Made by a program: the position numbers and the translations under genes. A stretch of 64,000 bases of DNA from Nibricoccus sp. (GTDB lineage Bacteria > Verrucomicrobiota > Verrucomicrobiia > Opitutales > Opitutaceae). Positions 13,853 to 60,174 of this stretch are shown piece by piece. The stretch is from contig JASGHG010000001.1 of the NCBI GenBank assembly GCA_047602425.1, positions 3,744,001 through 3,808,000 of the forward strand, given 5' to 3'. The stretch's first letter is position 1. Each line of letters begins with the position of its first letter. The notes below the pieces were generated by a model, which saw nothing but the letters and a program-made list of their open reading frames with translations, was not told where the DNA came from and did no database searches.

Positions 13853-14004
13853 GTCACAGAGTGCACAGAGCGCGGACACAGAGGCAGCGGGAGGCCACAA
13901 GGTAGGTTGCAATGAAGTGGTTAGCTCGACTGTTGGTTCTCAAGAAAGAGCGGAACTGGGTTTTCTCTGTGAACTCCGTGTAGAAGCTCTGTGTTCTTTG
14001 TGGC
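13853..14004. repeat. Inverted pair of CACAGAG arrays (mostly 9-nt period)
   Basis: Left arm GTCACAGAGTGCACAGAGCGCGGACACAGAG; right arm reverse complement GCCACAAAGAACACAGAGCTTCTACACGGAGTTCACAGAG. Confidence 0.75.
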
Positions 14005-52331: not shown

Positions 52332-52448
52332 TAACCACTTATTGTCACTGAAGGTCACTAATGCATGTGCCCTGGACCGAGTTTCCACATGCCTCGCCGC
52401 TGTTTTATTTCCTTTGTATCAGTGTCTATCAGTGAACATCAGTGGTTA
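52332..52448. repeat. Gene-less inverted pair of 10-nt periodic CACTDAT arrays
   Basis: TAACCACTTATTGTCACTGAAGGTCACTAAT vs reverse complement TAACCACTGATGTTCACTGATAGACACTGAT. Confidence 0.8.
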
Positions 52449-53829: not shown

Positions 53830-53897
53830 GCCACAAAAAGCACAGAAGGCGCAGAAGAGCTTTATTATGTGCATAGGCCGTTTGTGCTTTTTGTGGC
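53830..53897. repeat. Inverted pair of 9-nt periodic CACARAA arrays
   Basis: GCCACAAAAAGCACAGAAGGCGCAGAA ... TTTGTGCTTTTTGTGGC; 15 bp perfect inverted match. Confidence 0.75.
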
Positions 53898-53913: not shown

Positions 53914-54849
53914 TCAAATCGCCTCGTCGGCGACGCCCCAACGGAGATTGTAGAGCGAGTTCACGAACTCTTTGATGCCGCCAAATTCGGCGAGCGCGAT
54001 GAAGGTCGCGAGCGCGGCGGGCATCACATCAGCGCGGCCGAAGGGAACGCCGGGGATTTTGCGTCGCGTGTCGAGATCGACGGAACCGACGAGTTGAAGA
54101 AGTTCGCGCAGTTGAGCGACCGTGATCGTGGGGCCGATGTCTTCGAGCTCTTTGCCTTCACGGGCGGCGAGAATGACGCGGGCGGTCGTAAGCGTGCCGC
54201 CGGTGCCGATCGTGATGGCGCCCGGGGGTAGATCGAAGGCAAAACCGTTTTTCGCGAGCTTCTCCTTGGTTAATTCGCTCACGCGCAGGCGGGCTTCGTC
54301 GGTGAAAGGTTGCGTCGGATCGGCAACGCAACGCTCGGTCAAACGCACGCAGCCGAGCTGGAAACTTTGGGCTTGGCGGATGGTACGGTTTTGAAAAGAC
54401 AGACATTCGAGGCTGCCTCCGCCGAGGTCGAAGAGATAGAAGTTTTGCAGGCCGGCGAGCGCGGGATCGCAGGTGAGGCCGCGCCCAATGAGATTGGCTT
54501 CTTCGTCGCCGCTGAGGATGCGCACGCTATAGCCGGTTTTGTCGAAAATCTGCTGGCGAAAAATTGCACCATTTGTGGCGTCGCGCACGGCGCTGGTGGC
54601 GACGAGGATGGTTTTAGCCGGAGTGAAATTTGCGGCATCGGCGAGCAGTTCTTTGACGGCGGCGAGTCCGCGGGCCATGCCTTCGTCGCTAAGTCGTGGT
54701 TCGGCTTTGCTAATGCCGGCGCTGATGCGGGCATCGAGGGTTTTGTAGAAAAGCGAAGTCAGCCCGCCGGTGCTCGTGCGTTGGGCGACGAGGATCTTGA
54801 TCGAGTTGCTGCCAATATCGATGACGGCGACGGACGGGAATGCGTTCAC
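53914..54849 (-). CDS. Ppx/GppA-family phosphatase
   Basis: AVIDIGSNS, ATSAVRDATN, LSGDEEA, DLGGGSLE, LGCVRLTE and RADV motifs. Confidence 0.9.
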   Translation of the reverse strand: MNAFPSVAVIDIGSNSIKILVAQRTSTGGLTSLFYKTLDARISAGISKAEPRLSDEGMARGLAAVKELLADAANFTPAKTILVATSAVRDATNGAIFRQQIFDKTGYSVRILSGDEEANLIGRGLTCDPALAGLQNFYLFDLGGGSLECLSFQNRTIRQAQSFQLGCVRLTERCVADPTQPFTDEARLRVSELTKEKLAKNGFAFDLPPGAITIGTGGTLTTARVILAAREGKELEDIGPTITVAQLRELLQLVGSVDLDTRRKIPGVPFGRADVMPAALATFIALAEFGGIKEFVNSLYNLRWGVADEAI

Positions 54850-54856
54850 GGAAAAA

Positions 54857-56140
54857 TCACAGGGCCTTGATTGCGTCGGCGAGGACCTCGCAGGCTTTGG
54901 TGATGGCGGGGCCATCGTGGGCGGTGCTGAGAAAGGCGGCCTCGTAGGCGCTCGGCGCGAGGTAGACGCCTTGGTCGAGGCAGAGGCGGAAAAGGCGGGC
55001 GAAAAGTTTGGCGTCGCCTTTAAGCGCGGTGGCGTAGTCGCGGACCGGCGTATCCGTGAAGAAAATACTGAACATCGAACCGCATTGTGGAACTTGCACA
55101 GGAATCCCCTTGGCCTGCGCGGCGGCCACGACGGTGCCCTTGATCTGCTGGCCAAGAATATCAAGGCGGCCGTAGGGATTTCCCTCGTCGAGCAATTTGA
55201 GTGCGGCGATGCCGGCGGCCATTGCGAGCGGGTTGCCGCTGAGCGTGCCGGCCTGGTAAACGGGTCCGAGCGGTGCGAGGCAGTTCATGATATCGGCGCG
55301 TCCACCAAAGGCGCCAACGGGCAGGCCGCCGCCAATGATTTTTCCTAAACAGGTCAAATCGGGAACGATGCCTTCGCGCTCCTGCACGCCGCCTTTGGCG
55401 ATGCGGAAACCGGTCATGACTTCGTCGAAAATGAGAACCGTCCCGTGCTTGGCGGTGATCTCACGGAGGAACGCGAGGTAACCGGCATCGGGCATGATGA
55501 ACCCGACGTTGCCACAGTAGGGCTCGATGATTACGCCGGCGATTTGGCCGGGATTCGCAGCGAAGGCGGCCTCGAGTGCGGCGCGATCGTTGTAGGGGAG
55601 GACAACGGTTTCCTGGGCGAACGAGGCGGGCACACCGGCGCTGTCCGGACTACCATGGGTGAGCGCTCCCGAACCAGCTTTGATCAGCAATGAATCCGAG
55701 TGGCCATGGTAGCAGCCGGCGAATTTCACGATTTTGTCGCGCTTGGTGAAGCCACGGGCGAGGCGGATAGCCGACATCGTGGCTTCGGTACCGCTGTTGC
55801 ACATGCGGACCTTTTGGATTGATGGAAAAAACTTTATGATGAGCTCGGCCATCTCGACTTCGTAGGGATTGGGCGTGCCGAAGCTCGTGCCGTTTTCGAG
55901 CGCGGTGGCGATGGCCTTTTTGATCGCGGGGTGGTTGTGGCCGTGAATGGCGGGGCCCCAGGTGCAGACGAAGTCGACGAGGACTTGGTTGTCGCTCGTA
56001 ATGAGTGTGGCGCCGCGTGCGGCCTTGACGAAAAACGGTGCGCCACCGACGGAGCGGAAAGCGCGGACGGGCGAATTCACGCCGCCAGGAATAAGCTGCT
56101 GGGCGCGGGCAAAAAGTTGTTCGGAGGTTGAGGAAGACAT
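54857..56140 (-). CDS. hemL: Glutamate-1-semialdehyde 2,1-aminomutase
   Basis: [42 protein letters not shown] and [10 protein letters not shown] motifs. Confidence 0.97.
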
Positions 56141-56150
56141 GACGGATATT

Positions 56151-56610
56151 TTTTTAACCGCTAATTTTCGCTAATGGGCGCTAATTCAGACAGGAGAGCG
56201 AGTGTTGACGAAACGTTTCCATTGGAGCGAAGGAAACGCGGCAAAGTTGATGAGGTAACCGACGGACTTGCGGGTGACTCGGAGGTAATTGAGGAGTTGT
56301 GCCTCGTGTTCTTCGGCGAGTGTTTTGACGGCTTTGAATTCAACGACGACTTCATCAGCAATGAACAGGTCGGGACGCAAACGCTTTGTGAGAGGTTGGC
56401 CCTTGTAGAAAACAACAAGTTCGGATTGGGCAGCGAACGGAATGTTTCTCGCATTTAATGCGCGCTCCATGCTCTCCTGATAAATTTCCTCGGATAGACC
56501 GCCGCCCAGATCATTGTACACATCGAAAGCAGCGGCCATAATGTCATACCCGAGCTGTGCGAGTGGCTTGTCTGAATTAGCGTTCATTAGCGAAAATTAG
56601 CGGTTAAAAA
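56151..56610. mobile_element. Putative GxxExxY cassette bounded by 42-bp inverted repeats
   Basis: 56151..56192 TTTTTAACCGCTAATTTTCGCTAATGGGCGCTAATTCAGACA matches the reverse complement of 56569..56610 at 40/42 positions. Confidence 0.75.
56186..56587 (-). CDS. GxxExxY-family protein (PD-(D/E)xK nuclease-like)
   Basis: GLSEEIY, RPDLFI...VEFKAV, HEAQLLNYL and GYLINF motifs. Confidence 0.92.
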   Translation of the reverse strand: MNANSDKPLAQLGYDIMAAAFDVYNDLGGGLSEEIYQESMERALNARNIPFAAQSELVVFYKGQPLTKRLRPDLFIADEVVVEFKAVKTLAEEHEAQLLNYLRVTRKSVGYLINFAAFPSLQWKRFVNTRSPV

Positions 56611-56629
56611 CGGTTTATTTTCCGTTAAC

Positions 56630-58336
56630 TTAGCTCACGTATTTTTGGACGATGGGGATGCGGCGGCCGACGCCGAAGGCGAGGGGGGTGGTTTTCAGGC
56701 CGGGGGCCATTTGCTTGCGCTTGTATTCATTGAGGTCGACCTTGCGAATGATGTCGCTGACGACTGGTTCGGCGAAACCTTGCGCGATCAAGTCACGGCG
56801 GGAGAGGCCTTCTTCGACGTAGCCTTTGAGGATTGCGTCGAGCACGTCGTAGGGCGGCAGGCTGTCCTGGTCGACCTGGCCGGGGCGGAGTTCGGCGGAC
56901 GGCGGTTTTTCGATCGTGTTGAGCGGTATGATTTCGCGGTTGCGATTGATCCAGCGCGAGAGGGCGTAGATCTGCGTTTTGAAAACGTCGGAAATGACGG
57001 CGAGGCCGCCGCACATGTCGCCGTAAAGCGTGCAATAGCCGACTGCGACTTCACTCTTGTTGCCGGTGGTGAGGAGAAGCGAGCCGAACTTGTTGGACAG
57101 AGCCATCATGATGACGCCGCGCACGCGGGCCTGGATGTTTTCCTCGGTGACGTCGGGTTTGCGACCGGCAAAGATCGGACCGAGCGCGGTCTCGGCAGCG
57201 GCTACGACATCGGCGATGGCGATGGTTTCGAAACGAATGCCGAGGGTTTTCGCGAGAACGCGGGCGTCGTCTTTCGAGTGTTGCGACGAGATCGCGGAGG
57301 GCAGGGAAACGCCGATGACATTTTCCGGGCCGAAGGCTTCGGCGGCGAGCACAGCAACGACCGCAGAGTCGATGCCGCCGGAAAGCGCGATGAGCGCGCG
57401 CTTAAAACCGGATTTGAACGCGTAGTCGCGCAAGCCGAGCACGAGGGCGGCGTACACATCGGCGGAGGGATCGGAGGGTGGTAGGGACGACCCGCCGGGT
57501 CGTCCGTCAACGTCATCTGCGGGTAAGTTACGCGCGACCGGACGGCCCGGCGGTTCGTCCCTACCTTCGGAAAAACTCACATCGACGATGCGCAACTCTT
57601 CGGCAAACGCGGCGAGGCGGGCAATGACGTTGCCCGACGCATCGGCAACGAGTGAGCGGCCGTCGAAGATCAACTCGTCGTTACCGCCAATCGCATTGCA
57701 ATATACAAGTGGACAGCCGAGGGTGCGGACGCTGTCGATAACGAGTTGTTCGCGTATGTCGCTTTTGCTGTAATGCCAAGGGCTGGCGGAGAGATTGATG
57801 ACGAGATCGACGCTTTTGGCGGCGAGGCTGGCAACGGGATTGGCGCGGTAAAGGCGTCCGGTGTCGATTGCGGGGTTTTTCCAAATATCCTCGCAAATGG
57901 TGAGCCCGATTTTTTTACCGCCGAAATTGACGATGGCGGGCTCGCGGGCGGCTTCGAAATACCGATCTTCGTCGAACACGTCATAGGTCGGCAGCAGGCA
58001 TTTGCGGCCGATCACGGCGATCTCGCCGCGTTGGCAGAAGGCGGCGGCATTGAACCAGCGGCGGCCTTCGGCGGAGGGGTTCGTTTCGACGAAGCCGATC
58101 ACGGCGGGCACTTCGCCGATTTCGACGGCGATTTCGGTGAGCGATTCCTCGTTGTCGGAGACGAAGCGTTTTTTGAACAACAGATCGCGGGGCGGATAGC
58201 CGCAGACAATCAGCTCGGGAAACACGACGAGTTCAGCGCCTTGAGCGACGAGCGTGCGGTAGGCGTCGAGGATTTTGCGGCGATTGCCGGCGAGGTCACC
58301 GACGGTCGAGTTGAGCTGGGCGAGTCCGATGCGCAT
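56630..58336 (-). CDS. nadE: Glutamine-dependent NAD+ synthetase
   Basis: Nitrilase domain (FPEL..GYPP, K..LPTY.VFDE, TICEDIW) plus synthetase domain ([27 protein letters not shown]); start ATG 58336. Confidence 0.96.
57480..57565. repeat. GTAG-type REP doublet (REPIN-like) in frame inside nadE
   Basis: GGTAGGGACGACCCGCCGGGTCGTCCG vs reverse complement GGTAGGGACGAACCGCCGGGCCGTCCG (2 mismatches). Confidence 0.85.
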
Positions 58337-58465
58337 GAGAAAGGCATCACGGTGAACGGCTTTCCGGGGGCTGACAACTCGCAAGGCATCGACCCGGCTC
58401 GCGGGGATGTATGCCTCACCGGGGCCGCAGGAACCCTCCGAGATTGTCTCCCGTAAAATGACCAG

Positions 58466-58549
58466 CGTGCAGTGGGGCTCAAACTGCGTGCAGACAAGGG
58501 TGAATGGCGTGCAAATTCGACTGAACTCCGTGCAAACGAGGCAAACGCC
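58466..58549. repeat. Degenerate 21-nt tandem repeat, four units
   Basis: CGTGCA at 58466, 58487, 58508 and 58529. Confidence 0.7.
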
Positions 58550-58625
58550 TTCCAATTCCGATTGGCATAACGAGTGCTGCGACGAGTCCACTTTGGACCA
58601 CGCCAAAGCGAGCAGCATCGCACCG

Positions 58626-58651
58626 GATGCTTCGCTACGTTCAGCATGACA
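58626..58651 (-). repeat. TGTCAT-headed palindromic repeat
   Basis: Minus strand TGTCATGCTGAACGTAGCGAAGCATC, resembling (C/T)GTC-headed REP-like units; single copy in this window. Confidence 0.5.
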
Positions 58652-58704
58652 AAGATGAGCAGCAGCGACTTAAGACGCATCTATCACTCAATGAGAACTT
58701 CAGC

Positions 58705-58771
58705 TGGAGGGTCGACTTCCACGTCGACCGTTGGATCGAGTGGCGCGGCCGACGTGGAAGTCGGCCCTCCA
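58705..58771. repeat. TGGAG-headed REP-like doublet
   Basis: TGGAGGGTCGACTTCCACGTCGACCG vs reverse complement TGGAGGGCCGACTTCCACGTCGGCCG, with a compensatory stem change. Confidence 0.8.
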
Positions 58772-58949
58772 TTCGACCGAGTTTCCGCTCAGTGTTTGGT
58801 CAAGAAGCGGCTATGGTGCCCGCGAAACCACTGGGCTTCACGCAGCGATCGGGGCGACAAACGCCTTGAGTCACTGCCAACGCCAGCTAGAACCAGTGCT
58901 TACCCTTTGCAGACCCAACCGTGCGGAAGACCTCAAATTTTAACCTGCC

Positions 58950-59270
58950 ATGACTAAAGTGATTTTAGTTCTATTGAGTAGCCTTTTGTTGGTGACAGTT
59001 GGTTGCAGTCATACCCGTGCTTCGAAGAAAAAGGAGCCGGCCACCCCGGTGACAACCACCGAGTTCACACCGAATCGGGAACAACTGGTGCGTGATCGGG
59101 CTGAAGAATTGCGGACGAAAGGAATTCCTCCGGATCAAGCGTTGCGTCTCGCGCAGGGGCAGATTCCGGTCGTGCAAACCACCACGTCGCAATCGGCCAG
59201 CGCGGAAAAGGAGAGGAAGGCGCAGGAGAAGTTCGAAAAAGATCTGAACAAATCACTGAACCCACGGTAA
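58950..59270 (+). CDS. Small hypothetical lipoprotein
   Basis: Hydrophobic signal with VTVGC lipobox; charged helical C-terminus. Confidence 0.75.
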   Translation: MTKVILVLLSSLLLVTVGCSHTRASKKKEPATPVTTTEFTPNREQLVRDRAEELRTKGIPPDQALRLAQGQIPVVQTTTSQSASAEKERKAQEKFEKDLNKSLNPR

Positions 59271-59281
59271 GGGAGCTTTGG

Positions 59282-59452
59282 TTGAACAGAGATAGGTTTC
59301 TATCTCCATCCGTGTTTCAGAGGCGGTAAGTGGTTCAATGGGTCTTTTTTTTGACCACTTATGAACACTGATGGGCGCTGATAACAAACCAGGCACAACA
59401 GAATTGCACCCTACGGTCGGAAGCTCCGTTCCCTCAGTTTCCTCCTGTAAAA
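59282..59452. repeat. Composite cluster of periodic repeat arms
   Basis: ATCCGTGTTT...AAGTGGTTCAA (59308..59338), TTGACCACTTATGAACACTGATGGGCGCTGAT (59351..59382) and CTCCGTTCCCTCAGTTTCCTCCTGTAAAA (59424..59452). Confidence 0.65.
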
Positions 59453-60037: not shown

Positions 60038-60174
60038 AACCACTTATAATCACTTATTGGCACGATGCCTGAGTTGTAGCGAATAGAAAACCAAGACTCG
60101 GTTCATCGGTGAGGTGAATGATTTTGGTCAGCTAAATTCTGACCATCAGTGTTTCTCAGTGAAAATAAGTGGTT
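60038..60174. repeat. Gene-less inverted pair of 10-nt periodic CACTDAT arrays
   Basis: AACCACTTATAATCACTTATTGGCAC vs reverse complement AACCACTTATTTTCACTGAGAAACACTGAT. Confidence 0.8.

Follow-up and report, generated by a model that had tools for sequence, protein, structure and literature searches.

We find that a short cassette lodged between nadE and hemL, made up of a GxxExxY gene and the inverted arms that enclose it, is likely a selfish element whose driving enzyme belongs to a family with no reported role in DNA mobility, because in related bacteria it has switched operon junctions as a complete unit and because copies of its repeat are dispersed mainly in genomes that hold the same gene lineage. 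In our preferred reading, to which we give a probability of roughly 0.5, an old cassette has travelled as an arm-to-arm unit from one operon junction to another and across genera, the protein reading its own word and nicking or trimming the arm ends, and repair making the copies.

The window (the whole 64,000-nucleotide stretch analysed) holds the cassette as two 42-nt arms at 56151–56192 and 56569–56610, which are 95% (40/42) complementary and separated by 376 nt. They form the longest inverted repeat within 54000–59000, confirming the 460-bp unit with 40/42-identical, 42-bp inverted repeats of the original prediction. The core of each arm reads AAC-CGCTAAT-NNN-CGCTAAT-NNN-CGCTAAT, with the CGCTAAT words at a 10-nt period. 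This periodic build had also been claimed, and it was borne out by a two-word version of the pattern, which has four matches across the window, all inside the cassette arms (0.36 expected; four or more in 0 of 100 shuffles). The upstream arm (56569..56610, minus strand) comprises a T-tract, AAC and the three words at their 10-nt period, and holds the ATG (56587) of the GxxExxY gene (56186..56587, minus strand; 133 aa). The downstream arm (56151..56192, plus strand) is an inverted copy that holds the TGA and has, on the mRNA strand, an A-tract 10 nt before the hemL start. Placement of start and stop codons inside opposite arms, noted for this unit in the original prediction, holds for this gene but not as a rule of the family, where it occurs in 7 of 106 elements. 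For the core mobile unit, AACC...GGTT, we infer a boundary at 56156..56605 (450 bp), because homology in a sister pair described below begins at AACC and stops just beyond GGTT.

The host genes lie outside the element on both sides: nadE (NAD+ synthase; 56630..58336, minus strand) upstream, with its stop 19 nt from the cassette, and hemL (54857..56140, minus strand) downstream, with its start 10 nt from the cassette, exactly the position first reported. The GC content of the GxxExxY gene is 50.7%, compared with 61% for the neighbouring genes. Target-site duplication is absent here, as had been stated, and in 119 of 129 family elements (in the control, absent in 118 of 129). Two other inverted pairs were seen around nadE, a GTAG-type REP-like pair at window positions 57480–57565 (27-nt arms, 93%), in frame within the coding sequence, and a 26-nt pair (92%) at 58705–58771, upstream of the gene.

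The 133-aa ORF matches TIGR04256 at 128.8 bits (cut-off 35) and PF13366 at 130.4 bits (cut-off 22), so its assignment to the GxxExxY family stands. PF13366 was the sole match in a Pfam search at E ≤ 0.1, with no HUH/Y1 tyrosine transposase found, and a profile search of solved structures gave no match at E ≤ 10. An AlphaFold model from a 79-row alignment (pLDDT 90.8) has a PD-(D/E)xK fold. D73, E83, K85 and Q97xxxY101 are conserved and the protein has no cysteine; in the 79 rows, G30, E33, Y36, D73, K85, Q97 and Y101 are invariant and E83 nearly so, and D..ExK is found in 156 of 158 family proteins. Foldseek ranked Cas4 Sso0001 (4ic1) first (E 1.2e-4, TM 0.57) and lambda exonuclease second. 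In VIA-align, Cas4 Sso0001 scored Z 7.0 (rmsd 3.9, 102 aligned), tied with type IIG restriction-enzyme and DUF820 nuclease domains (Z 7.1–7.5); with near-equal scores across these domains, the fold indicates no substrate. Going by the model, the protein looks like a metal-dependent nuclease, active by appearance, and its catalytic site is, judged from the alignments, conserved and under purifying selection.

All five GxxExxY paralogues of this genome bear periodic inverted arms of their own. We searched 35 genomes of the family, picked partly by junction state and partly for completeness, with TIGR04256 and found it in 33, at up to 11 copies per genome; the loci analysed covered all matches except about seven (four weak, three others). 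Inverted arms were present at 134 of the 154 distinct GxxExxY genes. In a cross-phyla set of 39 loci, six of which were dropped as partial, arms occurred at 20 of 33 loci; the rates in control windows and in mismatched pairs were 0 of 56 and 1 of 33, respectively. Homologues thus generally have the periodic inverted repeats that the original prediction had proposed to look for in their flanks, and, as it foresaw, repeat words and protein clades vary together on the tree.

On that tree, a large quick tree made with IQ-TREE, every clade is associated with a single word and, for the most part, a single junction. The clade of this gene (26 rows, SH-aLRT 99) has the word C[AG]CT[AGT]AT, which also holds for its members at different junctions and in further Verrucomicrobiota; the relatives that group with this gene, where named, are Opitutaceae and other Verrucomicrobiota. 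Other clades have CACAGAG, CGCGAAT, ACAGGAG or GGAACTCAGGAA, and where a genome holds multiple GxxExxY paralogues, every one has a private word. The 10-nt period, noted originally as close to one helical turn, is a property of this gene's clade, whereas the other clades have a period of 9 nt. Among the 94 GxxExxY genes with both flanks assigned, 85 are co-oriented with both flanking genes. Outside the nadE, hemL, proS and clpS neighbourhood, the names of flanking genes are presumed ones, recognized from sequence. At two loci (L235 in G159 and L314 in G008), the GxxExxY gene lies between two whole hairpins in direct repeat, a layout in which recombination between the hairpins would leave a single gene-less hairpin.

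Within an element, word conservation is 0.90 and spacer mismatch 0.53, and the words persist in either arm, whichever of the three positions they occupy, and also where an arm is unpaired. Conservation of the words while the spacers diverge suggests that the sequence itself is read. G-U-compatible arm mismatches number 79 on the mRNA strand and 160 on the other strand (26 and 57, respectively, in the outer 18 nt). The word and spacer pattern and the G-U skew favour a protein that would read DNA words over a selected RNA stem, although this is not decisive, because strand composition could yield an equal skew.

The same mismatches bear on a different explanation, one that we hold to be rather improbable, in which the gene is a free-standing homing endonuclease within an IVS-like hairpin: it would cut the cassette-less allele close to the junction, perhaps at the conserved 5' end of hemL, and gene conversion would copy the cassette. 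In the mRNA, pairing of the arms would loop out the cassette and hide the start. The predicted mRNA fold, in which the arms pair and the ATG is buried (z −5.0), agrees with this explanation, as does the co-orientation of cassettes with both flanking genes, and T4 homing endonucleases under hairpin control, as described in excerpts of PMC2988022, provide a precedent. However, G-U-compatible mismatches are the fewer on the mRNA strand, the ATG lies within an arm in just 26 of 106 family elements, and the explanation would not account for unpaired arms, which number in the dozens and follow the presence of the cognate gene (see below). Flanking codon use also lacks a co-conversion footprint; a local C-rich signal was considered as such and rejected, as the bias proved to be gene-wide.

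To follow the history of the junction, we examined 131 hemL loci, with eight duplicates and one truncated locus excluded. nadE lay directly upstream of hemL in 89, and of these nadE-adjacent loci 19 held a full GxxExxY orthologue and four a fragment. The 90 loci placed on the host tree included 24 empty junctions (≤45 nt), which are the empty sites that had been proposed as a check among relatives, nine junctions that held arms of various words but no gene, and 32 occupied by other sequence. Empty alleles at this junction, like the arms around most homologues, run against conditions that had been named as refuting the original prediction. GxxExxY presence switches state 14 times on the 90-genome hemL tree. 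Comparison of 20 orthologues gave saturated synonymous sites (median pS 0.76) and, for close pairs, little change in the protein (for the closest genus-mate, pN 0.088 at pS 0.72), which marks the insertion as old and under selection. By this measure of divergence, the nadE–hemL copy is no recent insertion. Recent horizontal transfer of the gene, for which low synonymous divergence would have been the sign, was not found: the minimum pS over 190 orthologue pairs was 0.59, and no near-identical recent gene transfer was found among them.

The GxxExxY and hemL trees are in conflict. Two same-genus pairs hold different GxxExxY subclades (AU p 0.005 and 8e-7) and the hemL data reject a single clade for carriers of the CGCT subclade, with subclade groups in these tests named after earlier trees had been seen; the gene has therefore not been simply inherited. 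As read from the trees, it has been laterally replaced at the nadE–hemL junction. At two metagenome loci, a GxxExxY gene sits at nadE–hemL but with another arm word. Such strong site fidelity combined with lateral replacement is what homing would produce.

Three inserts at the junction (L016 in G015, L076 in G049 and L082 in G155) follow a defunct duplicate of the start of hemL, a 5' stub of 60–100 nt that ends near codon 20–33. Those in G015 and G049 are GxxExxY inserts; the G155 insert has no GxxExxY gene and is, we presume, toxin–antitoxin-like. A small non-GxxExxY insert is common to G049 and G155 at the identical point. The arrangement suggests integration that regenerates the gene start, and stubs of this kind would also suit a homing endonuclease. 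Inserts that follow a duplicated stub, once without GxxExxY, point to host recombination in some events, and toxin–antitoxin-like and GxxExxY inserts behind the stubs mean that the junction accepts several kinds of cargo. Neither the 21 closest metagenome nadE loci nor the one usable G002/G000 pair, which gave no boundary because its spacers are too diverged, provided a clean filled/empty pair that fixes the cut site.

Long persistence under purifying selection is also what would be expected if the protein had a domesticated host function on the arms, for example in operon mRNA processing, nucleoid organization, or recombination and gene uptake, with spread of the cassette secondary. Arms in this genome are nearly all intergenic and are modestly enriched at co-directional junctions (110/147 compared with 1786/2812), as such a function might require, and many copies in G002 have two flanks that map to different places in this genome. 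But the junction records repeated loss and decay, with its 14 state changes, fragments, gene-less arms and empty sites, and genomes carry many paralogues, each with a private word; we consider a host function distinctly improbable.

Relocation of the cassette is seen most directly in one genus. The G008 copy at nadE–hemL and a G080 copy at another junction share 81% identity over 483 nt; their homology runs from the first base of AACC to 7 nt beyond the last GGTT, within the A-tract, and both homology of the flanks and a target duplication are absent. From these limits, the mobile unit extends from arm to arm. A roughly arm-to-arm alignment was obtained in three of eight further hand-picked pairs. 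In these alignments, the cassette appears as a unit with defined boundaries that has relocated to new junctions. The G080 copy sits between what we take to be MnmE-like and MnmG-like genes, names recognized from sequence. In the MnmE-like gene that adjoins the relocated cassette, we observed an in-frame insertion of 7-nt repeats encoding a RTSNIERPTSNVQ-like peptide (L450, about 980–1130).

This genome holds 81 arms of the cassette word at 51 loci, with none for the reversed-pattern control. Unpaired arms account for 35 of the 81, and the remaining forms are pairs with unrelated interiors and clusters. Within the window are two inverted pairs of the cassette word family that enclose no gene, one (CACTDAT) separating proS from clpS (52333..52447) and one at 60038..60174, and a single arm of the cassette word family that faces a single ACAGGAG arm of another clade on the minus strand (59353..59448). 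Gene-less, 9-nt-period arm pairs with words of other GxxExxY clades were also noted at window positions 13854–14003 and 53830–53897, the latter directly following an exopolyphosphatase-like gene. At co-directional junctions of G000, single arms point at the downstream gene start in 39 cases versus 18 (p 0.008). By replichore, 70 of 111 single arms fall on one side (six patterns summed; the origin assignment is unsure). Tandem clusters of arm units at 120–240-nt spacing, which resemble BIME or REPIN clusters, were seen in G003 (C19, 354–610 and 8986–9518), G111 (C39, 39264–39698) and G000 (5058847–5059879).

Dispersed arms track the gene. In a first genome set, arms were abundant in 18 of 19 carriers of the clade and 3 of 17 other genomes; in a fresh set of 80 genomes, in 7 of 8 carriers and 20 of 72 others. 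Pooled at five or more extra arms, one of four thresholds tried (2, 3, 5 and 10), the figures are 21 of 27 carriers and 11 of 89 others. Of 12 independent pairs on a 114-genome hemL tree, 7.8 were for the link and 0.1 against, with a median p of 0.008 at threshold 5 and 0.06 at threshold 3. Seven non-carriers with 4–7 other GxxExxY genes had 8, 1, 0, 0, 0, 0 and 0 arms. A second clade has the same link (8/12 versus 1/24), with incomplete specificity, and in a third it is weak (p 0.07). Carriers of this gene's clade also predict the ACAGGAG word (10/19 versus 1/17), and the match of subclade to word variant is not significant (p 0.14). Exceptions occur in both directions: 129 arms are present in G100, a draft genome in 160 contigs (93% complete) in which the clade gene was not found, and G019 and G093 carry the clade gene without an exact arm match. 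Across the genomes compared, the dispersed arm family is enriched where the cognate clade is present. The original prediction had proposed an analogue of RAYT/REP; this stands in that there is a family of dispersed repeats and its abundance follows the gene, but no support was found for a transposon that is young or jumps freely: this copy is old, keeps to its site, and lies inside operons almost always in the orientation of its neighbours.

The arms in G100 are one reason to consider that the protein is a passenger or adaptor. A separate system acting in trans (an IS transposase, RAYT or host recombination) would then move the arms, with GxxExxY as cargo or as a binder of the word. The several cargo kinds behind hemL stubs speak for this, as do two parallels. 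The first is that four of the five four-helix-bundle (TIGR02436) genes in this genome lie between inverted arms of 7-nt period, with a separate word for each gene (G000 4322482, 624183, 4405390 and 3849089; L440–L442 and L444). The four-helix-bundle family is not known to have catalytic activity, and arms around its genes mean that the layout needs no nuclease and would suit a mobilizer acting in trans.

The second parallel is that arm pairs in G002 have multiplied inside another MITE, a larger unit of about 185 bp with CC...GG ends, present in at least ten copies (L316, L319, L321, L322, L327, L328, L330, L337, L339 and L344), with AT-rich 5-bp direct repeats that are exact in six of ten. We rejected this burst as proof of autonomous copying, because the unit outreaches the arms and carries 5-bp direct repeats; another transposase probably moved it, and its CC...GG ends resemble, we assume, those of the IS1380 family. 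Copies in G111 likewise share flanks outside the arms. RAYT was rejected as the owner of the arms, as none of the four PF01797 (Y1 transposase) loci in this genome bears arms of the cassette word within 700–900 nt. Beyond this, the word follows the protein clade across sites, the catalytic residues are retained in nearly all family proteins, and the arm ends lack a target duplication, which all count against a passenger or adaptor, and we consider this explanation unlikely.

Returning to the reading in which the protein itself acts on the arms, we give even odds to its binding, cutting or moving them. In the mechanism that we propose, one to three copies of the protein would bind the three phased words sequence-specifically on one face of the helix, and metal-dependent cutting would follow near the T-tract/AACC boundary. 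Host repair would often copy single arms and arm pairs, and rarely the whole cassette, a process akin to that of RAYT and REPINs except that the nuclease would be hydrolytic. Completion would fall to host recombination, because a RecB/Cas4-type hydrolase is incapable of joining strands itself. The cassette would be tolerated inside operons because its hairpin has a U-tract before it and an A-tract after it, the reverse of a terminator. More tentatively, at somewhat less than even odds, GxxExxY proteins may be the mobilizing RecB/Cas4-type nucleases of an undescribed class of bacterial mobile elements, minimal enzymes that would read a clade-specific word present three times in helical phase and would spread their own cassette together with a private set of dispersed repeats, leaving no target duplication.

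Several known systems share part of this design. REPtrons and REPINs (RAYT) and TIRtrons (TIRYT), as portrayed in excerpts of PMC3733652, likewise have one small nuclease gene between inverted repeats, dispersed singles, dimers and clusters, a repeat type tied to enzyme type and a gene that is old and site-stable, as here. Their enzyme, however, is an HUH/Y1 transposase and GxxExxY a PD-(D/E)xK protein, and GxxExxY sites are mostly within operons and co-oriented. The GxxExxY arm also differs from REP in being non-palindromic, without a GTAG/CGTC tag, and in having three direct words at a 9–10-nt period. ORF-bearing 23S rRNA intervening sequences, according to excerpts of PMC4990558 and PMC11270868, similarly combine a small ORF with complementary, stem-capable ends and are patchy and horizontally acquired, as here, and the four-helix-bundle family shows the cassette-like layout in this genome. 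In contrast to these, the cassette lies between the protein genes nadE and hemL and not in an rRNA helix, its arms also occur unpaired genome-wide, and the polarity of their mismatches is unfavourable to an mRNA stem.

The T4 seg/mob homing endonucleases described in excerpts of PMC2988022 resemble the cassette as lone nuclease genes at a fixed intergenic site, with lateral spread and a start that a hairpin can hide, whereas the GxxExxY cassette has defined inverted ends and cognate dispersed repeats, and its cleavage of a target is only hypothetical. Cas4/RecB nucleases (Sso0001, 4ic1; excerpts of PMC5704561) have the fold and the D, ExK and QxxxY motifs in common with GxxExxY, which at 133 aa has no cysteine and therefore no Fe–S cluster. 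DDE insertion sequences and MITEs share terminal inverted repeats and gene-less derivatives with the cassette, but the latter has neither a DDE transposase nor a target duplication, and its orientation is not random. The element family departs from each known family in that family's defining feature and works most like REPtrons and TIRtrons.

In earlier work, the function of PF13366 is given as 'Unknown' (PMC3424549), GxxExxY receives one passing mention in 10.1101/2021.01.26.428298, and the term also occurs in PMC12085832. In the literature searched, from which subscription papers and bioRxiv supplements fell outside the scope, we found no description of elements made of a GxxExxY gene plus arms. 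New here are the findings that the cassette relocates as an arm-to-arm unit, that it has been laterally replaced at a single site, and that dispersed repeats are linked to their cognate clade. For every clade, the data predict a particular substrate, the clade's 7-nt word repeated in 9–10-nt phase, so that function is directly testable by swaps of cognate and non-cognate words. If the protein is the mobilizer, it would account for an abundant class of intergenic repeats and add an enzyme class to mobile DNA, and it would make available 130-residue nucleases of many natural specificities. Such elements would, if this is true, represent a third route in addition to the DDE and HUH chemistries and provide a natural library of small nuclease/recognition-word pairs.
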